DNA of 64,000 nt from Patescibacteria group bacterium (lineage in GTDB: Bacteria; Patescibacteriota; Patescibacteriia; Veblenbacterales; UBA10138), in NCBI GenBank assembly GCA_041648575.1, contig JBAZOT010000003.1:14895-78894 (forward strand), in the 5' to 3' direction. This document shows, piece after piece, positions 4,538-61,081 of this stretch (positions are counted from its first letter, which is position 1; the number at the start of each line of letters is the position of its first letter). The position numbers were made by a program, and so were the translations under genes. The notes below the pieces were generated by a model, which was not told where the DNA came from, searched no databases, and worked only from the letters and a program-made list of their open reading frames with translations.

Positions 4538-5221
4538 CTAAATTACCAAGGGAATGGCTGGCCCCATAGAACAAGTCAATACAGCATTTTTAAGATAAGT
4601 ACCCTTAACGCCTGTAGGTTTAGCCTTGCGTATCGCCTGCAACAGATTTTCAGCGTTTTCCTGTAATTTTATTGCGTCAAATGACATTTTACCAATCATC
4701 TGATGCACATTACCAGATTCATCCACTTTAAAACTAATTTTACCAGAATTAAGTGCTTGCACAACTTTTCCCACATCTGGAGTAATAGTCTCGGTTTTAG
4801 GATTAGGCATTAAACCTTTTTGCCCCAGAATTTTAGCAATCGGTGCCATTTTCTTCATCATACCTGGTGTAGCAACCGCAACATCAAAATCACATTTCCC
4901 AGTGGTGGCTATTATTTTTATTAACTCGTCTCCACCCACAATCGTCGCTCCAGCTGCCTTAGCTTCTTTTTCATTAGCTTCTTCACAAAAAACCGCCACT
5001 TTTTTTAACTTACCTAAACCGTGTGGCAAAGTTGTGAAACCACGCACTTGTTGATTAGCTTGTTTAGTGTCAACTCCCAGTTTGAAATGAATTTCCACCG
5101 ATTGATCAAACTTAGTGGCTGGCATTTGTTTTAAAAGCTCTACTGCTTCTTTAATATTATAACGCTTGCCCGGCTCAATTTTAGAACGGGCAGCTGTATA
5201 TCGTTTACCTGATTTTGACAT
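4538..5221 (-). CDS. rplA: 50S ribosomal protein L1
   Basis: MSKSGKRYTAARSKIEPGKRYNIKEAVELLK...FDQSVEIHFKLGVDTKQANQQVRG: L1 signature. Confidence 0.95.
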   Translation of the reverse strand: MSKSGKRYTAARSKIEPGKRYNIKEAVELLKQMPATKFDQSVEIHFKLGVDTKQANQQVRGFTTLPHGLGKLKKVAVFCEEANEKEAKAAGATIVGGDELIKIIATTGKCDFDVAVATPGMMKKMAPIAKILGQKGLMPNPKTETITPDVGKVVQALNSGKISFKVDESGNVHQMIGKMSFDAIKLQENAENLLQAIRKAKPTGVKGTYLKNAVLTCSMGPAIPLVI

Positions 5222-5786: not shown

Positions 5787-6332
5787 TTAGATCTTTTGAA
5801 TTTGTAAAAAATCCAACTCTACTGGCGTTTCCCGTCCAAACATTGAAACCAATACTTTTACTTTACCCCGACCTTCGTCTACCTCGGATACCTTACCGTC
5901 AAAATCCTTAAAAGGCCCATCACTAATTTTTACTGCCATACCAACAGTCACATCCATTTTATAAGTTGGCTCTTCAATGCCCATTCTTTTTTGCAACGCC
6001 TTCATTTCTTCTTCTGAAACTGGAGTTGGAGTGGTGCCGCTACCAATAAATCCAGTAACATTTGGGGTATTACGCACCACATACCATGAATCATCAGTCA
6101 CCATCATTTCCACTAATACGTATCCTGGAAAAATTTTCTCTTCAACCACTTTACGCTTGCCATTTTTAATGCGAATCTTTTTTTCAGTGGGAATTAAAAT
6201 ATTAAAAATCTTATCACCCATATCCATTGATTCAATACGCTGCTTTAAATTGCGGGTAACATTTTCCTCATAACCAGAATAGGTATGTAGGGCATACCAA
6301 CGTCTACCTTGTTGTATTATCTGTCGCGGCAT
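5787..6332 (-). CDS. nusG: transcription termination/antitermination factor NusG
   Basis: WYALHTYSGYEENV (NGN domain) and KOW motif GMAVKISDGPFKDFDGKV. The ATG at 6330-6332 (MPRQ...) is the likely start. The ORF track adds four residues from a TTG inside the upstream repeat element. Confidence 0.9.
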   Translation of the reverse strand: MPRQIIQQGRRWYALHTYSGYEENVTRNLKQRIESMDMGDKIFNILIPTEKKIRIKNGKRKVVEEKIFPGYVLVEMMVTDDSWYVVRNTPNVTGFIGSGTTPTPVSEEEMKALQKRMGIEEPTYKMDVTVGMAVKISDGPFKDFDGKVSEVDEGRGKVKVLVSMFGRETPVELDFLQIQKI

Positions 6333-6484
6333 ATCCAGTAACAATAACTTGACCTGCTAAAAATTAAGCGAGTCAAAAGTTTATTTAATAGTTAGATCGG
6401 TCTTGTTTAAAAAAGATAACATAGATTAATAGTATAGATAATTTCTATCAGCACGAGCTTAAGTCAAGTTTTGTTACTGGACAT
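6333..6484. repeat. Copy 1 of a ~140-bp TIR-bounded intergenic cassette (copy 2 at 51633-51777)
   Basis: Left end CCAGTAACAATAACTTGACCTGCTAAAAATTAAGCGAGTC, right end GAGCTTAAGTCAAGTTTTGTTACTGGACAT. The termini are inverted repeats of each other (CCAGTAACAAAACTTGAC). About 41 nt on the left and 30 nt on the right are near-identical to copy 2, and the middle is about 70% similar. Confidence 0.8.
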
Positions 6485-6487
6485 AAT

Positions 6488-6676
6488 TTATTTATATAAT
6501 AATTGCTGCAACCCTATATTAAAAATATAATCTAAGGCGCCTAAAAAAATAGCTACCCCCAAAGAAATACCAATCACCAACAAAGTATGTTGGGTAGTTT
6601 CTTTTTTGGTAGGCCAAACAACCCTTTTAAGTTCTTCAATTGATTGTTTAAAATAATTGGTTAATTTATTAGGCAT
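6488..6676 (-). CDS. secE: preprotein translocase subunit SecE
   Basis: 62 aa, single C-terminal TM helix LLVIGISLGVAIFLGALDYIF. Conserved position immediately upstream of nusG. Confidence 0.85.
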   Translation of the reverse strand: MPNKLTNYFKQSIEELKRVVWPTKKETTQHTLLVIGISLGVAIFLGALDYIFNIGLQQLLYK

Positions 6677-6726
6677 AACGATCTTAAAATCAATTATTCA
6701 TTAAAATAAAACCCAGTTTTTAAAGT

Positions 6727-6752
6727 CTTTTAAAAGGCCCCTTGCTGGGCCT
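6727..6752 (-). terminator. Putative rho-independent terminator upstream of secE
   Basis: On the minus strand GGCCCAGCAAGGGGCC followed by UUUUAAAAG. Modest U-tract. Confidence 0.4.
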
Positions 6753-6931
6753 CTATTAAAAAGAATAGCACGAAGTTAAAATGCTGGCAAGTGCCTAAAA
6801 CACTATTGAAAATTAATAAAAAGCCCTAAATACCGTAGTAGTTGGGAGATAGTGGTGAAGATTATTAAGAATTAATGTTTTGTAGAGAAGATGTGCAGAT
6901 GCACAAGGGGCGAGTTTTTTAGTAGGAGTTT

Positions 6932-6979
6932 GGGGATACAATTTAAACCTCTAAGTTATAAAGATTTAAATTGTATCCC
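6932..6979. other. Long perfect hairpin (16-bp stem GGGGATACAATTTAAA / TTTAAATTGTATCCC, 18-nt loop) inside a 570-nt non-coding block
   Basis: Read directly from the sequence. No CDS covers 6677-7247 apart from an implausible 61-aa ORF. Confidence 0.5.
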
Positions 6980-7223
6980 TGTCACCACGCTACCAACCTG
7001 CCTGTTTTTCCTCTTGTTAATCCTTCTCCACCACCATCTATCTTAATTTTACTCCTAAATTAACAATTTGTCAAATCAACCAAATTTGGATTGCGTATAA
7101 CGTATGCGGATATGAGAAGTTGCGAAGCAATTTGGGATGAGACTCTGCAAGAGCCGAGACTCATATCCGCTGTTAGGCGAGGGTGAGCGACCAACGGGAG
7201 CGAAAGTGCAACGCCCCCTTGAG

Positions 7224-7237
7224 TTCAAACCTGAGCC
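7224..7237. repeat. 14-bp inverted repeat, left copy (TTCAAACCTGAGCC), downstream of the SDR gene
   Basis: Exact reverse complement of 8032-8045 (GGCTCAGGTTTGAA). The pair brackets the SDR gene. Confidence 0.6.
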
Positions 7238-7247
7238 GTCCCTCAAT

Positions 7248-7982
7248 TTAGTTTTTAACATTCTTTTGCTTGATTACAATAATTTGTCCAGTAATATGAT
7301 CTGCCTCTTTTGAAGCTAAAAACAAAGTCAAGCTTGCGACATCTTCGGATTGAAGTGCGTTATCTGGTGTAGCATCATCTGGGAAAAATTTTTTGTACGC
7401 TTCAGTTGCTACATCAGAAGGCGAAATGCAATTAACTTGAATTTGATGATTTCTAAGTTCGTGAGAAAGTCCAACCGTTAAATCTTCAATCGCTTTTTTG
7501 GACACGAAATAAGGAAGCCAACCTTTTGCGCCACTCTCGAAAGTTCCTGAAATGTTGATGATTTTACTACCTTGTTTCATTAAGGAAACGAGTTCGTGTG
7601 ATAAAATGGTTGGCGCAGTTAAACCCACTGCGTAAGTATCCAAAATTTCATCGGTTGAATAATCAGCAAATTCAATCCCTGAAAACGCTTTGTCTTTAGA
7701 GTGCCAAATACCAGCAACATTGACGAGAATATCTATTTCGCCTTCTGACTCCTTGATATTTTGAGCAAACTTTTTTATCTCATCAACACTTCTTAAGTCA
7801 ACACAAAAAATTTTTCCTTCGCTACCTGCTTCTTTAACAAGCTCAAGTGTTTTTTCTAAACCATCTTTGGAGCGAGCCAAAAGCATAGTTTTCGCACCTT
7901 CCGAAGCGAGCTTGACGGATATAGCACGACCAATGCCAATACTTGCACCTGTGATGACGGCAATTTTGTTTTTTAGCTTCAT
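7248..7982 (-). CDS. short-chain dehydrogenase/reductase (SDR) family oxidoreductase
   Basis: N-terminal IAVITGASIGIGRAI Rossmann motif. Catalytic Y-x3-K region (LPYFVSKKAIEDL). Confidence 0.85.
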   Translation of the reverse strand: MKLKNKIAVITGASIGIGRAISVKLASEGAKTMLLARSKDGLEKTLELVKEAGSEGKIFCVDLRSVDEIKKFAQNIKESEGEIDILVNVAGIWHSKDKAFSGIEFADYSTDEILDTYAVGLTAPTILSHELVSLMKQGSKIINISGTFESGAKGWLPYFVSKKAIEDLTVGLSHELRNHQIQVNCISPSDVATEAYKKFFPDDATPDNALQSEDVASLTLFLASKEADHITGQIIVIKQKNVKN

Positions 7983-8031
7983 AAAATTATTGTAATCATT
8001 AAGGATTTATAAAACAATCGATAGCTTGATA

Positions 8032-8045
8032 GGCTCAGGTTTGAA
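8032..8045. repeat. 14-bp inverted repeat, right copy, upstream of the SDR gene
   Basis: GGCTCAGGTTTGAA is the reverse complement of 7224-7237. Confidence 0.6.
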
Positions 8046-8149
8046 TTTCGCCTAACTGGTTTATATGTGGAGTAAATGTTTAATATATGCATAAATTTGT
8101 ATGATATGTGGAATAAACTTACAAAATTATTAAATATCTAAATTCTTAA

Positions 8150-8310
8150 CCCACCTCCGCCCTGGCTGCAGGTAAATTTTCCAACCATTTTCTTATTCGC
8201 ACGAATAAGAAAGTAGTAATCCAGGGATAACCACTTAAATACCCAACTTCTTTACCCGCCTCCGCTAAAGCTTCTGGCTTCGCTCTAGCTTAGGCGGACA
8301 ACTCGGTGGG
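8150..8310. other. GC-rich structured non-coding element with competing helices (CCCACCTCCGCC...GGCGGAcaactcGGTGGG; CCGCCT...AGGCGG; CCCTGG...CCAGGG; hairpin TTCTTATTCGcaCGAATAAGAA)
   Basis: GC content far above local background. Long-range complementarity read from the sequence. Lies between the gyrB stop and the SDR start. Confidence 0.4.
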
Positions 8311-8318
8311 CAGGCATT

Positions 8319-15727: not shown

Positions 15728-17170
15728 TTATTTAATTTTCTTAACTATACCTTTATTAGCGTCTACTTCCACCAAATCGCCATCTTTAAATAATAAAGTG
15801 GCATTATTAGTACCAACTATACAAGGAATCTTTAATTCCCTGGCAGTAATGGCAGCGTGACAAATCAAGCCGCCTTTATTAGTAACAATAGCCGCTGCTT
15901 TTCTCATAGCTGGTAATAAATCAGGACTAGTAGCTTGCGAAAGCAAAATATTACCGCGATTCATCTTTATCATATCTTTAGGTATTTGTATAATCTTTAC
16001 CACCCCTTTGACTTTTCCGGTATAAGCACATTGCCCCCTAGTTTCTTTGGATAAAGACTGTTCTTGTTGAATAATTAAGGAAGAAACATACTTTTTAGCT
16101 TGAGAATCAATCATCATCTGATTGCCTTGCTTATTAACTAAAAAACATGAAAAATGACGTCGTCTTTCTAACGCAGAAATATCTAGCTTCTTTTCCAGAA
16201 TAAACCCAGGCACCTCCCAAGGAAGAAGGAAAGTAAATATTTTCCAGTCATTCACACCTTGTTGTTTTGCAAGCAATCTCCACAGTGCCTCATATGAATA
16301 AAAGCTATGAGTCAAAAGGTCTTTACGTAAACCTTTCTGCCAAATTACGGTCTGGGCTAACTGAACCAGAAATCTCGCTCGATTAGTATAATTTAACTTA
16401 GCCATTAACTCCTGCTGTTGTTTTTTTATTTTATTAAGTTGCAGAGGTAAAGACAAATTAACATTTCCCCTACAGACAGTACCGAACTCTTTCTTAAATT
16501 CTTCAAATAAAATAACTGGACCTAAATATAAATAATCAAGCCAACAATAATTCCTATATAATTTTTTTAAAATTAAGGTGAGCCGATTTTTACTTAATGC
16601 TTTACGGCGGCTAGCTAATAAAGCTAACTTGTAATCTTTTTTTTGATGAAGACTTAATTTGGTAACTTGGCTCAATAATGTCCAATGTTTATTAAAATCC
16701 TTAGCAGAAGAGAATCCTCTCAATTCTTCCATGATTTTATTCGATAGATGATTTTTACCATCAATAATTAAACCGTTTACTATTACTCCACTCACTTGAT
16801 AGAGGTGTTGAAGATTACTAACTTTCATAAACTCCTTCGCTAAACTTGATCTGGATAATTTATCTAACGGTAAATTCCTAAACAACTTAGCGCTCTTAAA
16901 AAATTTATCAGCATAAAGGTTAATCTTATCGTATATCTTGGTACGCCATTTGTTATCATTTAACAAGCGATTAGCGGCAAAGTTGGCTGATTTATTAAAC
17001 TCTTGATCATCAAAAAAATAAGTGCACACACCTTTGTCCATCACTGCTATAACTTTGGTGATATAACTACCACCCCCTAATCGAGGAAAATCATGAACAA
17101 AGCCACGTCCATGGTACCCTAACAATAACCAATGGCCACTAAATATCCTGTCATAAATTAACAGAGCCAT
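15728..17170 (-). CDS. protein with C-terminal PEP-utilising-enzyme mobile (phosphohistidine swivel) domain; N-terminal about 380 aa unassigned
   Basis: C-terminal GGLICHAAITARELKIPCIVGTNNATLLFKDGDLVEVDANKG is the conserved His domain of PEP synthase / PPDK / rifampin phosphotransferase. Confidence 0.65.
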   Translation of the reverse strand: MALLIYDRIFSGHWLLLGYHGRGFVHDFPRLGGGSYITKVIAVMDKGVCTYFFDDQEFNKSANFAANRLLNDNKWRTKIYDKINLYADKFFKSAKLFRNLPLDKLSRSSLAKEFMKVSNLQHLYQVSGVIVNGLIIDGKNHLSNKIMEELRGFSSAKDFNKHWTLLSQVTKLSLHQKKDYKLALLASRRKALSKNRLTLILKKLYRNYCWLDYLYLGPVILFEEFKKEFGTVCRGNVNLSLPLQLNKIKKQQQELMAKLNYTNRARFLVQLAQTVIWQKGLRKDLLTHSFYSYEALWRLLAKQQGVNDWKIFTFLLPWEVPGFILEKKLDISALERRRHFSCFLVNKQGNQMMIDSQAKKYVSSLIIQQEQSLSKETRGQCAYTGKVKGVVKIIQIPKDMIKMNRGNILLSQATSPDLLPAMRKAAAIVTNKGGLICHAAITARELKIPCIVGTNNATLLFKDGDLVEVDANKGIVKKIK

Positions 17171-31591: not shown

Positions 31592-31629
31592 TAGTCATTT
31601 TTATGTCTGGCCAGACATAAAAATGACTA
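31592..31629. repeat. Perfect 38-bp palindrome (a): TAGTCATTTTTATGTCTGG|CCAGACATAAAAATGACTA
   Basis: Perfect dyad, read directly. Shares the outer arms CAACTAGTCATTT...AAATGACTA with palindrome (b) at 32712-32749. Confidence 0.85.
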
Positions 31630-32566: not shown

Positions 32567-32651
32567 ATAACACCTGTTTATTTTTGTTTAATAAATTCCC
32601 CATTATTTGGGACTTTTTTAAAGATCTTTACTGTTTTTACAATAACAATAC

Positions 32652-32680
32652 ATAATACGGCAAACTACTTTATTTGTCAA
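32652..32680 (-). promoter_or_regulatory. sigma70-like promoter TTGACA-17-TATTAT for the Cys-rich protein gene
   Basis: Minus-strand hexamers read directly, about 85 nt upstream of the start. Palindrome (b) lies about 35 nt further upstream. Confidence 0.55.
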
Positions 32681-32711
32681 TATCCATACTAAACTAGATT
32701 AAATCACCAAC

Positions 32712-32749
32712 TAGTCATTTACCCTTTCGCGCGAAAGGGTAAATGACTA
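32712..32749. repeat. Perfect 38-bp palindrome (b): TAGTCATTTACCCTTTCGC|GCGAAAGGGTAAATGACTA
   Basis: Perfect dyad. Inner core ACCCTTTCGCGCGAAAGGGT. Half-copy at 33082-33100 in front of the ArsR gene. Confidence 0.85.
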
Positions 32750-32777
32750 AAGAAATAATTTATGCATAAACAGTTAA

Positions 32778-33056
32778 TTAGCTAGTCTGACGGACTTGCT
32801 TAAGAAGCTGCTGCAACAAACTACTTAACCCCTCATCTAAACTATATAGACCTACGTATCCAAATTGCCTGCGTTCTAAAAACCCCACTTGCCGCAATAG
32901 CACTAAGTGTTTAGAGGTGGACTTAAATGATAGATGAATCGCCGTCGCAACGTCACCTACTGTCCGCTCTTTACCATCGGACAACAACCTTAGTATCTCC
33001 AGCCGCTTTCTCGCACCCAGCGCCCGGTAAACCTTTTCTAACTCTCGTAGACGCAT
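32778..33056 (-). CDS. ArsR/SmtB-family winged-helix transcriptional regulator
   Basis: ...YRALGARKRLEILRLLSDGKERTVGDVATAIHLSFKSTSKHLVLLRQVGFLE...: ArsR HTH signature. Confidence 0.8.
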   Translation of the reverse strand: MRLRELEKVYRALGARKRLEILRLLSDGKERTVGDVATAIHLSFKSTSKHLVLLRQVGFLERRQFGYVGLYSLDEGLSSLLQQLLKQVRQTS

Positions 33057-33081
33057 GTTGGTAGTATATCATATTTACTGA

Positions 33082-33100
33082 TTCGCGCGAAAGGGTAAAT
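33082..33100. promoter_or_regulatory. Half-site TTCGCGCGAAAGGGTAAAT of palindrome (b) overlapping the ArsR promoter region (likely autoregulatory operator)
   Basis: 19/19 identical to the right arm of 32712-32749. Lies 25-45 nt upstream of the arsR-like ATG next to a TATACT -10-like hexamer. Confidence 0.55.
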
Positions 33101-33120
33101 AATCATATAAACCAACACAT

Positions 33121-49721: not shown

Positions 49722-49742
49722 GCAACTTCTGGTCTTTTTTTA
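49709..49742. terminator. Probable bidirectional terminator between convergent genes
   Basis: AGACC-ggataagcaacttc-GGTCT followed by TTTTTTT. A-rich on the other side. Confidence 0.5.
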
Positions 49743-51632
49743 TCTAACAACCACTCCTTTGCCTTGCGCGCCTAAATCATTATCCAGTTCTGTGGTAACT
49801 AATTTATCTGTAGCAATTAAATCTGCACCGCTATAAGCATCCCGAGCTGTGGCAGTGGTGGTTTTTACCAACACTAAAATTTTATCCGCATCTTGCTCTG
49901 CCGGTGTAATAGCTACTTCAAAAGACGCTTCTGGTTTATCAAATTTAAACCCTACGCCCGCAGGCAGACGATTTAATTCCCAACGCACTTCGCGAGTATT
50001 GGGATTATATGTTAATGGCTGGCCATGCGATACTGTCGTTTGTCCGGTCCAGGTTACATCTTGGGGTAAAGTAGTAGTAACTTCAACGTTGCTAGCCTCA
50101 TTAATAGTATTGGCTAATCTCCAAAAAATATTATAAGTGGTAGTGTTGCCTACTCGCGGCGGCAACTGTCCCGAGCCAATTTTTATCAACTGATCTGTGT
50201 AATACCTACCTTCTGTTTGAACTAATAATTGTGTATTAATCTTGGTAATTATAATATTTGATTCAGTAGTAACCGGCTGTAATTTACCACCAATCAATTG
50301 CTCGGCACTCGCCTTAACGCTGGTATTAAAACTATAAGGCGACATATTGTTAGGAGCAACACTTACAACTTTCAAGCGAAAATTAATACTGCCTTTGGTA
50401 CCAGGAGCAACTCTAGCTAAACTGGGCAACTCATTTTTTGTCCAAACCACTGCGTTTTCTGTCTCTTTAACATTAGTTGGCGTATCTGTTTGCCAAGAGG
50501 TCCAATCTAATAACTCGGAATTTAATTTGGTCTCTAACACTAAATTAGTTAAAGCAATTTCCCCTTCATTAGCATAACGCAATTCAAAATCAATTTGTTC
50601 CCCCCAATCAGCATAGCTTTTTAAAACTACCTGATTCGCAGTTAATGACAATGTTAAATGAGACTCAATTAACGTTACAGATATTTTCTTTTCTTCTTGA
50701 ATAGTAAAAGTATTATCGTCATTAATCACACCAATGGCTACAGAAAAATCCTGAATACCAGCACTAGCTGAAGTGGTAAACCTGCCGGTAAATTCCAGCT
50801 CGCCAACACTTTTGGCAGATAGGTCATCCAATTTCCATAAATTTATTTCGCCAATTACTGATTCTAATTTTGGAAGATCCAATTCGAAGCCGCTGGGGCT
50901 AATGAATTTTAATGCTAAATTCGGCAACGCCGCAGTAGAAGTATTATTATACTTAATTTTTAATGCCAAATCTTGATCAAAAGGTAATTGTGCAGGAGCT
51001 TCTAAATCTATGGTTACTACCGAAGCAATTAATTCTGTGGAAAAAACTGTCGTCTTGGCAAACTGTGCTTTAAAATTTTCCGGCTCATATGTAAAAACCG
51101 CGGCCATTTCCTTAATCTCGCCAACCTCACCAACCATTTGCCCGGTTATTACCAACTCTCCACTACCTTTGGCGTCAACTTGACCTAAGAGAAATCTAGT
51201 CTTGGCTTCATCATCAGCTGGTTTACTGGTTTCAGTTACGACAAAACCAGTCGGATAGCGAAAATTAACTTCCAAAAAATTTAAACCAACTCCCTGATCA
51301 TTATTCCAAGACAAAGTATAATTAATCATTTGCCCCGATGGCGCACTGACTGGACCAGATAATTTCACCTTAACCGCTTCTTCGCCAAATTTTGTATTCT
51401 GACCACTAAAAAAAACAAACCAAATGCCACCGACAATAATTACCACTAATAAAGTGGTCGTTAACCATAACCAACCACGCTGACGTGAAGCTTTTTTTCT
51501 TAGCACGCGAAAATCTTCAGGTGGATCTTGGCGATACATGCGCGCCAATTCACGCTCGGCAACTTCTGCAGTTAAAGGTGTTTTTTTTGATTTTGATAAA
51601 GTATCAAGAGGTGGCCTAGAAATATTAGACAT
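49740..51632 (-). CDS. large membrane-anchored extracytoplasmic protein (about 630 aa; cytoplasmic N-terminus, one TM, beta-rich ectodomain), unknown function
   Basis: ...RQRGWLWLTTTLLVVIIVGGIWFVFF TM. Long Thr/Ser/Val-rich ectodomain. The likely start is ATG at 51630-51632 (MSNISRPP...). Confidence 0.6.
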   Translation of the reverse strand: MSNISRPPLDTLSKSKKTPLTAEVAERELARMYRQDPPEDFRVLRKKASRQRGWLWLTTTLLVVIIVGGIWFVFFSGQNTKFGEEAVKVKLSGPVSAPSGQMINYTLSWNNDQGVGLNFLEVNFRYPTGFVVTETSKPADDEAKTRFLLGQVDAKGSGELVITGQMVGEVGEIKEMAAVFTYEPENFKAQFAKTTVFSTELIASVVTIDLEAPAQLPFDQDLALKIKYNNTSTAALPNLALKFISPSGFELDLPKLESVIGEINLWKLDDLSAKSVGELEFTGRFTTSASAGIQDFSVAIGVINDDNTFTIQEEKKISVTLIESHLTLSLTANQVVLKSYADWGEQIDFELRYANEGEIALTNLVLETKLNSELLDWTSWQTDTPTNVKETENAVVWTKNELPSLARVAPGTKGSINFRLKVVSVAPNNMSPYSFNTSVKASAEQLIGGKLQPVTTESNIIITKINTQLLVQTEGRYYTDQLIKIGSGQLPPRVGNTTTYNIFWRLANTINEASNVEVTTTLPQDVTWTGQTTVSHGQPLTYNPNTREVRWELNRLPAGVGFKFDKPEASFEVAITPAEQDADKILVLVKTTTATARDAYSGADLIATDKLVTTELDNDLGAQGKGVVVR

Positions 51633-51777
51633 ACCCAGTAACAAAAACTTGACCTGCTAAAAATTAAGCGAGTCGAGATAATTAATAATAAAAGTTGGTT
51701 GGTTTATAAAAGCTGACATAAATTGATAATATAGATGATTTTTACCAGAGCTTAAGTCAAGTTTTGTTACTAGGCAT
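51633..51777. repeat. Copy 2 of the ~140-bp TIR-bounded intergenic cassette
   Basis: ACCCAGTAACAAAAACTTGACCTGCTAAAAATTAAGCGAGTC ... GAGCTTAAGTCAAGTTTTGTTACTAGGCAT. See copy 1 at 6333-6484. Confidence 0.8.
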
Positions 51778-51779
51778 AT

Positions 51780-52529
51780 TTATAGAATACTACGTAAAAG
51801 TTTTAATGTATAGAGTTGTCGTCCTGCCTGTCCTTGGACATAATCAACCAAAAATCCTAAAAGTTCAGCTGGTAATTGACGATTATACGGTGGTTCCGCT
51901 CGTGTCGCTAGGGTGTGTAAATAACTTAAAGCGTCATCAGTTAATAAAAACAAACCACTGCTATCGATGATACAATTTTTATGATAAAAACCATGTTCTC
52001 TAAAACTAAACACCACGGGCGCTGCTAATTCACCTTGGCATTTTGGACACCTAGTAACTTGAATTGCTAGACCAGTAATTTTTAATATTTTATAAATAAA
52101 TCTGCCCAGATATGTTCTGGCTCGCTCACGCCAAGCCGGCTCATCTTTGGGAATATCTTTTAATTGGCTTAAATAATACCTTAGCGATTTTAATAATTCC
52201 GGTTCAGGCGCGCCTAAAGAAGTTAGCACATCAGTTATTTCCAAAAACGAAGTGCCTAAAATGGCGGTATTTAAATGATAAGGTGTTTTTAAAAAAATTC
52301 TTTTAAGTTCCGCGCCTGCTAATTTATCATATTTTTTCCCCGGTGCCACCTGTACCTGAACTTCACCAAAAATCACCAAATGTGGAGCTAATTTAGATAA
52401 AATTTTTCGCGAACTAGTAGCTACCGCCTCAACCTTACCCCGTCGCTCTGTAAAAATAGTATAAAGCCGATCATTTTGCCTATGACTTCTAGCGCGTAAA
52501 ACAATACCGGTAGTGGTATAAGTAGACAT
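51780..52529 (-). CDS. recO: DNA repair protein RecO
   Basis: N-terminal OB fold (...TGIVLRARSHRQNDRLYTIFTERRGKVEAVA...). C-terminal zinc motif CPKCQGE...HKNC. Confidence 0.75.
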   Translation of the reverse strand: MSTYTTTGIVLRARSHRQNDRLYTIFTERRGKVEAVATSSRKILSKLAPHLVIFGEVQVQVAPGKKYDKLAGAELKRIFLKTPYHLNTAILGTSFLEITDVLTSLGAPEPELLKSLRYYLSQLKDIPKDEPAWRERARTYLGRFIYKILKITGLAIQVTRCPKCQGELAAPVVFSFREHGFYHKNCIIDSSGLFLLTDDALSYLHTLATRAEPPYNRQLPAELLGFLVDYVQGQAGRQLYTLKLLRSIL

Positions 52530-60593: not shown

Positions 60594-60708
60594 CATGAAG
60601 TATATGCTAGCAAATTAATACGCCATGAAGTTGTATAAAGAAGTAAATACTTCTTGGCTCGCCATGAAGTTATGCGAATAAAATGAGCATATACTTCATG
60701 GTGGAGAT
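60594..60708. promoter_or_regulatory. Cluster of CATGAAGT iterons (3 direct, 1 inverted) between the tmRNA 3' end and the GIY-YIG/infC operon
   Basis: GCATGAAGTA at 60595, CGCCATGAAGTT at 60633 and 60661, ACTTCATGGTGG at 60693-60704, overlapping the tmRNA CCA end. Confidence 0.4.
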
Positions 60709-61081
60709 GGCGGGAATTACACCCGCGTCTAAGACAATTAACTTTACCCTTCTACAAACTTAGTCTGATTAATTTTGACAGAAGTCAAATCAGACCAAAG
60801 CCCCTGTCAATCTGTCCTAAGTAATGTCGGCCTAAGCACTAGAACAATACTTAAACCCTGCTCGATAAATGACGCTCTATAAGACTATCGAGATCGTCTA
60901 ATAGAACGGCCTCTGCTTAAATTAAGCAAAAGCTGGTGCTAGTGTCAAAGTGCTAAAAGCAGCTTTGGCGCGAGCTACAAATGATTTGGCATTTGTGAAG
61001 TGTGATGCTTTTATTACGCAGACACATCAACTGCGGTCTGCCAGACAAAGATCACTGCCTTATCGATTGTTAAACATCCCC
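60700..61081 (-). ncRNA. ssrA: tmRNA (SsrA), about 382 nt
   Basis: Minus strand 5'-GGGGAUGUUUAAC... and 3'-...GACGCGGGUGUAAUUCCCGCCAUCUCCACCA. 7-bp acceptor stem with G3.U wobble (AlaRS identity). T-arm GCGGG/UGUAAUU/CCCGC. Encoded CCA. Plausible tag ORF GCC AAA UCA ... GCU UUU GCU UAA (AKSFVARAKAAFSTLTLAPAFA*). Adjacent to smpB. Confidence 0.85.

Follow-up and report, generated by a model that had tools for sequence, protein, structure and literature searches.

A palindromic element before nusG and beside recO

This report concerns a small inverted-repeat element that is present twice in a stretch of 64,000 nucleotides (hereafter the window) of contig JBAZOT010000003.1 from a Patescibacteria group bacterium (GCA_041648575.1). 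One copy, A, lies between secE and nusG, and the other, B, between recO and a gene encoding a protein of 630 amino acids. The genes at both sites are all on the minus strand, and each copy ends directly before the start codon of the downstream gene. The features at the two sites are as follows.

6334..6481, minus strand: copy A (148 bp), the secE/nusG insertion; nhmmer E = 1e-43
6482..6485, minus strand: 5' direct repeat TATG of copy A (the empty sites of relatives hold one TATG)
6455..6481, minus strand: conserved 5' arm block of copy A, consisting of the terminal inverted repeat (6463-6481) and then TTAAGCTC
6436..6431, minus strand: -10-like TATACT of copy A, 8 nt upstream of the internal ATG
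6381..6422, minus strand: internal mini-open reading frame (mini-ORF) of copy A; ATG at 6422..6420, frame truncated by TAA at codon 14
6334..6374, minus strand: conserved 3' arm block of copy A, with the terminal inverted repeat at 6334-6353
within 6334..6374, minus strand: subterminal local hairpin in the 3' arm block of copy A, TTGACTCGC-N10-GCAGGTCAA
6330..6333, minus strand: 3' direct repeat TATG of copy A, whose ATG (6332..6330) is the nusG start
51634..51774, minus strand: copy B (141 bp), the insertion between recO and the 630-amino-acid gene
51775..51778, minus strand: 5' direct repeat TATG of copy B, which opens MPSNKT and a stop
51748..51774, minus strand: conserved 5' arm block of copy B
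51733..51728, minus strand: -10-like TATATT of copy B, 8 nt upstream of the internal ATG
51657..51719, minus strand: internal mini-ORF of copy B, MSAFINQPTFIINYLDSLNF followed by a stop; ATG at 51719..51717, stop 24 nt before the host ATG
51634..51674, minus strand: conserved 3' arm block of copy B, with terminal inverted repeat and subterminal hairpin
51630..51633, minus strand: 3' direct repeat TATG of copy B, whose ATG (51632..51630) is the start of the 630-amino-acid gene

Both copies are bracketed by direct repeats that read CATA on the plus strand and hence TATG in gene orientation. Upstream of copy A the secE stop codon (TAA, 6488-6490) is followed by AT, and upstream of copy B the recO stop codon (TAA, 51780-51782) is followed by A; the downstream start codons are those listed. 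The nusG start is backed by NusG homologues, which begin MPRQ. The upstream repeat of copy A gives rise to a spurious ATG and a six-codon ORF (MSSNKT and a stop) that enters the 5' arm.

A preliminary description of this DNA had reported a cassette of about 140 bp with 20-bp inverted repeats, present twice, with conserved ends, a core of about 70% similarity and termini able to fold into a long stem, and the comparison of the two copies bears this out. They are 92% identical over the 5' arm block and 95% over the 3' arm block (with identical runs of 29 and 24 nt in the arms) and 65% identical over the core, and a 19-nt arm pattern is found at these 2 places only in 64 kb, against a chance expectation of 0.07. 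Their termini are inverted repeats of 19-20 bp in which a single base bulges, and the outermost position shows covariation, with T..A in A and C..G in B. The RNAs are predicted to fold at -41.2 (A) and -37.8 (B) kcal/mol (z = -6.1 and -6.2), a value that 0 of 200 shuffled sequences reached, and pairing is kept via compensatory changes. The direct abutment of the downstream ATG, also proposed at that stage, proved invariant across all copies described below, whereas the proposed distance of 2-3 nt to the upstream stop is correct for the duplicated TATG only; the element proper is 6 nt (A) and 5 nt (B) away.

An in-frame TTG lies in the 3' inverted repeat, 12 nt before the true ATG (6333-6344 and 51633-51644, minus strand; TTG TTA CTG GAT/GGT ATG), so that mechanical ORF calls lengthen both proteins by four residues (MLLD/MLLG), giving a NusG of 185 rather than 181 amino acids and a 630-amino-acid protein of 634. 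The gene for the latter (49740-51632, minus strand) shows faint Pfam hints only (CLIPPER, DUF7619) and an N-terminal transmembrane-like segment, and its orthologue adjoins recO in all the relatives examined.

Twelve copies in two subfamilies

A hidden Markov model of the copies, run with nhmmer across about 300 kb of fetched loci, brings the family to 12 copies at 9-10 independent sites. Ten of these lie outside the window, at loci of other genomes, and all ten stand at start codons, a point that the preliminary description had proposed to check in this genome and its relatives. The loci were grouped by genome.

Genome W, the window's genome: window, L015, L016, L019, L020
Genome X, GCA_043806155.1: L017, L021
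Genome Y, GCA_964530635.1: L001, L006, L018, L022; L023 carries the same D copy
Genome V, GCA_043823825.1: L009, L025; Logan counterparts L010, L026
Genome Z, Ga0172379 metagenome contig: L011
Genome T, SRR22388232 assembly: L024, L027

The ten further copies are:

Copy B2: genome X, L017 9775-9928; recO/630-amino-acid gene homologue; orthologous to B
Copy C: genome Y, L001 5116-5271; infA/rpmJ; subfamily 1
Copy D: genome Y, L001 2133-2277; rplQ/rplM; TATA on both sides
Copy E: genome Z, L011 136-281; at the argS ATG, 90 nt after the previous gene
Copy F: genome Y, L018 4065-4218; rpmI/rplT; 38 nt past the stop
Copy G: genome Y, L018 about 7005-7150; argS/ileS; between a TATAAT box and the ATG of ileS
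Copy H: genome Y, L018 5088-5202; upstream of argS; 5'-truncated
Copy I: genome V, L025 6865-7014; rpoA/rplQ
Copy J: genome V, L025 4314-4457; infA/rpmJ; subfamily 2
Copy K: genome T, L027 5989-6140; rpoA/rplQ; orthologous to I

The elements are 141-155 bp long, with terminal inverted repeats of 19-20 bp and an AT-rich core, and fall into two subfamilies: type 1 (A, B, B2 and C; arm CCAGTAACAAAACTTGAC) and type 2 (D-K; arm CCCAGTAATACAACTTC). Within subfamilies the arms are 85-96% identical, compared with 24-76% for the core. The infA/rpmJ junction has been struck independently by type 1 and type 2, in different genomes. Some copies are decayed: the arms of G are degraded, H is truncated and E is without the internal ATG. 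The flanking repeats are TATG/TATG in A, B, B2 and G, TATA/TATA in D, CATG/TATG in I, and TAT/TAT in E, F and J.

Wider scans yielded little more. Among 185,579 species-representative genomes a pattern with 19 specified bases (GTAACAANAACTTGACCTGC) gave five matches, one of them real (L001); the other four (L002-L005) match the pattern only (nhmmer positions 123-147) and are hence due to chance. A broader pattern in the JGI metagenomes gave one real match (L011) and three chance ones (L012-L014), and a two-anchor subfamily-1 pattern gave none there. Scans of viral collections with the element patterns were negative, and blastn against plasmids and phages found no match to the element. Rfam reported tmRNA alone in the window at the gathering threshold, and at E values of up to 5 the two copies gave nothing beyond noise. 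Neither the 40 window ORFs that were scanned nor the precomputed Pfam table for 41.8-62.5 kb shows a transposase domain.

The 600-nt non-coding gap between rplT and argS in L018 holds a GC-rich palindrome, GGGCATACCCATATGCTTGGCATATGGGTAGCC (about 5030-5085), directly on the 5' side of the truncated copy H. It has no Rfam match, and the GC-rich stretch may be an unrecognised RNA gene that replaces the 5' half of this copy.

Occupied and empty sites among relatives

At the secE/nusG junction the element is missing from five related contigs (L006-L010), where the gap is 3-13 nt long and a single TATG stands at the start, for example TAAACTATGCCC (L009), TAATTTATGCCG (L007) and ...CAAGTATGCCG (L006). 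Removing the element and one TATG from the window's junction leaves TAAATTATGCCG, which has the same architecture as these empty sites. The recO junction is occupied in L017 (RecO 90% identical), by copy B2 with TATG on both sides, and empty in L018 (TAGTTATATGGCT) and L024. Reciprocally, locus L019 of the window's genome is empty at the sites of C/J, D and I/K (TAATATTTATGAAA, TAATATGGCC and TAATTAATATATGAGA), and the infA/rpmJ, rplQ/rplM and rpoA/rplQ junctions are empty in L021 too. The window's genome is also empty at the sites of F (rpmI/rplT), G (argS/ileS) and E/H (upstream of argS), so that every comparable site is empty in at least one relative. The same copies were found again in independent assemblies (L015/L016 for copy B, L022/L023 and L025/L026) and are therefore not assembly artefacts. 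These sites confirm that the element is an insertion and not a conserved spacer.

Searches with NusG, RecO and RpoA place the window in the Patescibacteria, near sequences labelled Kerfeldbacteria or Uhrbacteria, the best NusG matches being 93% identical. A 101-kb contig (ERZ27249422 k141_75984) encodes a protein 100% identical to the window's RecO, which is also present in a Logan assembly of SRR8449827. It should be noted that GCA_964530635.1 is titled 'uncultured Gammaproteobacteria bacterium', yet its NusG (93%) and RecO (89%) are closest to the window's genome and its RpoA is 83% identical to that of L019; the public label looks wrong. Locus L024 belongs to a more distant relative (RecO 78% identical). 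In its regions 1-1127 and 15800-16300 it carries a bAvd and reverse-transcriptase pair resembling a diversity-generating retroelement and a Y1_Tnp (IS200-like) fragment of 78 amino acids, before which stands a GC-rich stretch full of palindromes. This 20-kb locus lacks the element.

Start-codon register and orientation

In 12 of 12 copies the 3' end of the element lies 0-2 nt from the host ATG, and in all 12, representing the 9-10 independent insertions, its orientation is that of the host gene, in many cases an essential one. Proximity to the upstream stop codon, put forward in the preliminary description as a second property of the cassette, does not extend to the family: E, F, G and H are 38 to more than 90 nt away, and the close abutment in A, B, C, D, I and J results from insertion into junctions only 1-7 nt long. 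Non-coding TATG occurs in the window 46 times at starts and 46 times elsewhere, and the figures for TAT(G/A) are 46 and 152. If insertion followed the target motif alone, the probability that 9-10 of 9-10 insertions fall at starts would be about 1e-3 to 1e-7, and that of a uniform orientation about 1e-3. The insertions at starts are thus in excess of what the target motif explains, and either integration reads more than TAT(R) or selection spares this position and orientation alone.

Stem, hairpin and mini-ORF

The terminal stem comprises 13 column-matched pairs that are 90-95% paired over 10 copies, with compensatory changes such as those at column 29/162 (CG in four copies, GC in four and UA in one), so that the folding and covariation check proposed at the outset came out in favour of a paired stem. 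Just inside the 3' arm lies a local hairpin, GCUCGC-N10-GCGAGC in type 2 and UUGACUCGC-N10-GCAGGUCAA in type 1, which is 79% paired with exchanges between A-U and G-C; the minimum-energy folds of D, I and F contain both this hairpin and the terminal stem. No matching subterminal hairpin was found at the 5' end of the element, and the self-complementarity of the arms themselves does not go beyond 3 bp.

In 11 of 12 copies the core has a single ATG, the position of which is conserved. In type 1 the -10-like TATA(C/T)T precedes this ATG by 8 nt, or by 12 nt in B2. The frame of the ATG stays open over 13-30 codons, compared with 0-14 for the other two frames from the same point, and ends as follows.

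D, G, H and J: 10-12 nt before the host ATG, with TGA within the 3' repeat
B and B2: 24 nt before the host ATG
F: 31 nt before the host ATG
I and K: overlapping the host (rplQ) ATG as ATGA
C: overlapping; having lost its stop, the frame extends 8 nt beyond the ATG
A: broken at codon 14, at a distance of 48 nt from the host ATG
E: without an internal ATG

Between I and K the 30-codon frame is kept while 29 of 93 nt differ (31%), with no indel. The encoded peptides are nearly wholly different between the subfamilies, conserved residues being found only where the structurally constrained 3' arm encodes them. As the peptide is not conserved, any selection would be on the act of translation and not on its product; the open frames are suggestive, and only suggestive, of selection of this kind.

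Expression signals of the host and of the element

The window is 90% coding, and many of its gene junctions measure 0-10 nt; nearly all genes of the genome are co-oriented. Shine-Dalgarno motifs are few among the window's genes. T occupies position -1, giving TATG, in 41 of 57 of them, and TATAAT (often TGnTATAAT) lies just 6-10 nt before the ATG of many. This layout suggests that leaderless mRNAs, or mRNAs with very short leaders, are widespread in this genome.

The preliminary description had seen in TTGACT and TATA(C/T)T the parts of a portable promoter. The two motifs are present, but as a -35/-10 pair they are 25 nt (A) and 21 nt (B) apart, with about 30 nt in C, and a consensus scan found no promoter common to A and B; the portable sigma-70 promoter was accordingly dropped, hexamer spacing of 16-18 nt conserved between copies being absent. 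The -10-like box alone could serve an internal start, at its position 8 nt before the internal ATG. An outward promoter in the 3' arm was also considered: in A, TATTGT ends at 8 nt from the ATG, but B has TTTTGT in its place, and in subfamily 2 TGATATACT ends just 4 nt before the ATG, so this inconsistent candidate was discarded. An intrinsic terminator was rejected as there is no U-tract after the stem.

Other features of the window

A full-length tmRNA is recognised by Rfam at 60699-61081 on the minus strand (97.5 bits); ARAGORN reported neither tRNA nor tmRNA in the 64 kb, and a tRNA-Trp was not found where many bacteria carry one. Directly 3' of the tmRNA is a perfect 15-nt inverted repeat (60594-60608 / 60686-60700) that encloses 77 nt and is adjoined by a GIY-YIG ORF of 85 amino acids; the repeat could be another small insert.

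Two non-coding gaps are long for this genome: 6677-7247 (about 570 nt), upstream of secE, and 7983-8318 (336 nt), with an SDR gene on one side and gyrB on the other. The first gap contains a 21-bp hairpin (6933-6979), and a search of Rfam over 6300-7300 with E up to 5 returned nothing in the gap upstream of secE. Further along, 32567-33120 (minus strand) contains an ORF of about 95 amino acids that was judged by eye from its sequence to be ArsR/HTH-like, between two ATTTACCCTTTCGCGCGAAAGGGTAAAT palindromes (33073-33111, imperfect; 32712-32749, perfect); a related perfect 38-nt palindrome starting TAGTCATTT lies at 31592-31629. These palindromes are probably operator sites, bidirectional terminator sites or both.

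A probable mobile element at start codons

We consider it probable that the cassettes are copies of a family of non-autonomous elements resembling MITEs (miniature inverted-repeat transposable elements), confined so far to a narrow clade of Patescibacteria and tolerated or selected at start codons only. The basis for this reading is the precise gain or loss of the element among relatives, together with the short flanking repeats, the conserved arms and the fixed register and orientation. Since no autonomous partner was found, transposition is inferred from the insertion polymorphism. A MITE that targets start codons had already been raised as a possibility in the preliminary description, and the polymorphic sites, the direct and inverted repeats and the location of all copies at an ATG agree with it. 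As to the target, duplication of TA (Tc1/IS630-type) would fit copy D and leave TG unmatched at the 5' end of A, B and G, and a duplication of 3-4 nt at TAT(R) appears preferable.

How such an element might insert and be tolerated can be outlined as follows. A transposase supplied in trans would make a staggered cut of 3-4 nt at TAT(R). T-ATG is the start context of about 70% of the genes in this genome, and many of the usable non-coding targets are therefore start codons. The duplication would restore an intact TATG for the host gene, and in the transcript the paired arms would loop out the 150-nt insert, bringing the upstream stop codon, or the 5' end arising from the TATAAT box in the case of ileS (copy G), back beside the start codon. 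The internal ATG, situated in the unpaired AT-rich core, would open a short ORF through the 3' arm, and ribosomes on this mini-ORF or on the upstream gene could melt the 3' arm and then reach the host ATG by termination-reinitiation. Alternatively, cleavage of the stem by an RNase III-type enzyme might recreate a short leader, as in Correia elements (PMC2649163, PMC10969869). It is also conceivable, instead of or in addition to a relay, that the mini-ORF is what remains, as a fusion of the N- and C-terminal parts, of the transposase gene of a parent insertion sequence. Expression of the downstream gene by looping or relay is thus a prediction from the sequence features.

Taken further, the element could be a mobile 'start-codon cassette' for initiation that is free of Shine-Dalgarno motifs and often leaderless or with a very short leader, one that inserts at the T-ATG of a gene, regenerates the start by duplication, loops out as a hairpin and brings along its own native-style start (-10-like box, spacer and TATG) and a sequence-indifferent relay mini-ORF; we offer this as a tentative and rather unlikely proposal. 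If true, a transposon would survive by rebuilding the translation start that it interrupts, and would provide a natural probe of start choice by ribosomes of the candidate phyla radiation (CPR).

Several observations weigh against the interpretation as a MITE-like family tolerated at start codons. The flanking repeat is not uniform, being 4 nt in some copies and 3 nt in others, a mismatched pair in C and absent from K. The family is rare, with one true match in 185,579 species-representative genomes and one in the JGI metagenomes, and nhmmer found no autonomous insertion sequence with the same terminal repeats in the roughly 300 kb of fetched loci. A single orientation is not usual among MITEs of the DDE type and calls for a strand-specific mechanism or for selection. 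Only in subfamily 1 is the -10-like box convincing, subfamily 2 being without a good -10. Concerning the mini-ORF, copy A has an in-frame stop, C has lost its stop and E has no ATG; the changes between I and K are 19 nonsynonymous and 2 synonymous, with the fewest at codon position 3, and in simulations at the I/K divergence the frame stayed open by chance in 22% of trials.

The element might instead be functional, and possibly domesticated, serving as a portable promoter, a structured 5' leader or both rather than as selfish DNA. The strict start-codon position and uniform orientation would be expected of such an expression cassette, the -10-like box of subfamily 1 with its ATG 8 nt downstream mimics the layout of this genome (TATAAT, 6 to 10 nt, ATG), the mini-ORF ends beside the host ATG, and the orthologous pairs B/B2 and I/K have been kept through considerable divergence. 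However, the spacing of TTGACT and the -10 is 21-30 nt with no promoter common to A and B, subfamily 2 lacks a good -10, and copies decay, as seen in the arms of G, the truncation of H and the missing ATG of E. Moreover, the same essential genes are without the element in sister genomes; it is therefore not required and a domesticated cassette need not be invoked. We regard this alternative as unlikely, although far from negligible. The mini-ORF might also encode a functional small protein, such as a type I toxin-like or leader peptide, which would make the element a small mobile gene. Eleven of the 12 copies have an ATG with an open frame, and this frame always exceeds in length the other two from that point. 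Against this, the peptides differ almost fully between subfamilies, nonsynonymous changes predominate in both pairs that were compared (19 against 2 in I/K, 6 against 0 in D/H), copy A has an in-frame stop, and such residues as are conserved come only from the structurally constrained 3' arm, all of which makes a functional peptide very improbable.

With regard to mechanism, a single-strand HUH/Y1 transposase of the IS200/IS605 or REPIN/RAYT kind could have moved the element by inserting it 3' of TAT(G), in which case the apparent duplication would be the target plus a matching end of the element. Such a route would account for uniform orientation in a genome of nearly all co-oriented genes and for target-specific insertion, and it accords with the conserved subterminal hairpin beside the 3' end and with the Y1_Tnp fragment in the relative L024; the flanks of E, F, J and C are compatible with both models. 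Long, near-perfect terminal inverted repeats are nevertheless foreign to IS200/IS605 ends and the 3' hairpin has no 5' match, the flanks of D (TATA) and of A, B and G (TATG) match as in a true duplication, no Y1 gene was found among the scanned window ORFs, and the element is missing from the contig that carries the Y1 fragment. We therefore hold this mechanism to be improbable. That no mobility is involved, the two cassettes being a chance or segmental duplication or a vertically inherited spacer, would suit the presence of only two copies in the 64-kb window, but with 0.07 arm matches expected, ten further copies at other loci and precise empty sites, this can practically be discounted.

Relation to known mobile elements and implications

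By definition a MITE measures 50-800 bp and has terminal inverted repeats no shorter than 10-15 bp (PMC11602168). The present family has the corresponding size and terminal repeats, a target-site duplication within 2-10 bp, no internal transposase, and polymorphic, dispersed copies. Its presence indicates that even ultra-compact CPR genomes, this one being 90% coding, harbour active mobile DNA, and that nusG, rplQ, rplM, rpmJ, rplT, argS and ileS tolerate a 150-nt hairpin directly before the start codon. This tolerance constrains models of initiation and coupling in Shine-Dalgarno-poor bacteria, and the natural insert makes such models testable. In practical terms, the element creates false TTG starts in gene calls and spurious micro-ORFs from the duplicated ATG, and its insertion polymorphisms provide ready markers of strains in these uncultured organisms. 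Full-text searches turned up no paper on MITEs from CPR/Patescibacteria, literature searches on MITEs at start codons and on leaderless translation in Parcubacteria returned nothing relevant, and a 2024 MITE review does not mention start codons.

Among described elements, the Correia elements (CREE) of Neisseria are of about 100-155 bp with terminal inverted repeats of about 26 bp and are co-transcribed with their neighbours; their RNA stem is cut or bound by RNase III, and they can create promoters and alter adjacent expression (PMC2649163; PMC10969869). The present element is likewise non-autonomous and of similar size, with terminal inverted repeats and arms that are predicted to form a long RNA stem. 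Insertion of CREE duplicates TA. The duplication here is TAT(G/A), of 3-4 nt, the host belongs to another phylum, there is no evident sequence relation, for instance to the 26-bp Neisseria repeat consensus, and CREE are confined neither to start codons nor to one orientation. The ERIC/IRU sequences are palindromic elements of about 127 bp in intergenic and intra-operon positions, whose orientation affects mRNA fate (PMC10969869; PMC2229807; PMC3184786), and some small mobile sequences of enterobacteria carry short ORFs (Delihas 2007, as cited in PMC10969869). ERICs differ in lying mostly 3' of or between genes with no fixed start-codon register, and no relay role has been proposed for their ORFs. 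The Rickettsia palindromic elements (RPE), of about 150 bp, occur in a reduced, compact genome, contain an open frame and are tolerated at seemingly lethal sites (PMC10969869). RPE sit within genes, in frame with the coding sequence, and the protein incorporates them, whereas the copies described here are all outside ORFs and end at -1.

With REPIN/REP sequences the element shares two inverted arms in a long hairpin, occurrence in many copies and non-autonomy, and a strand or orientation bias is expected for REPIN; it differs in that its arms are not themselves palindromic, that direct repeats flank it and that no RAYT (Y1) gene was found in the window scans, the coverage of this genome being 64 kb plus 8.5 kb. 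Elements derived from IS200/IS605 make no duplication, insert 3' of a fixed tetra- or pentanucleotide and have subterminal hairpins at either end in place of terminal inverted repeats; the TAT(G) target and the 3' hairpin would agree with this, and the long terminal repeats, the matched 4-nt repeats and the missing 5' hairpin do not. Insertion sequences reportedly have a promoter in the left end and the stop codon of the transposase gene in or near the right inverted repeat. An in-frame-deleted insertion sequence would thus resemble the present element, with its -10-like box, an ATG about 60 nt from the 5' end and a stop in or beside the 3' repeat; the frame stays open in diverged subfamilies, however, which would not be required of a dead remnant, and no parent was found. 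In its manner of working the element is similar to palindromic MITEs of the Correia, ERIC or RPE type, yet it is outside the Correia, REP/REPIN and RPE families, whose defining features it lacks. We rate it a new MITE-like family whose unusual positional rule, the 3' end at -1 of the ATG and a single orientation, is well supported, and such a strict start-codon register is not a described property of bacterial MITE families.

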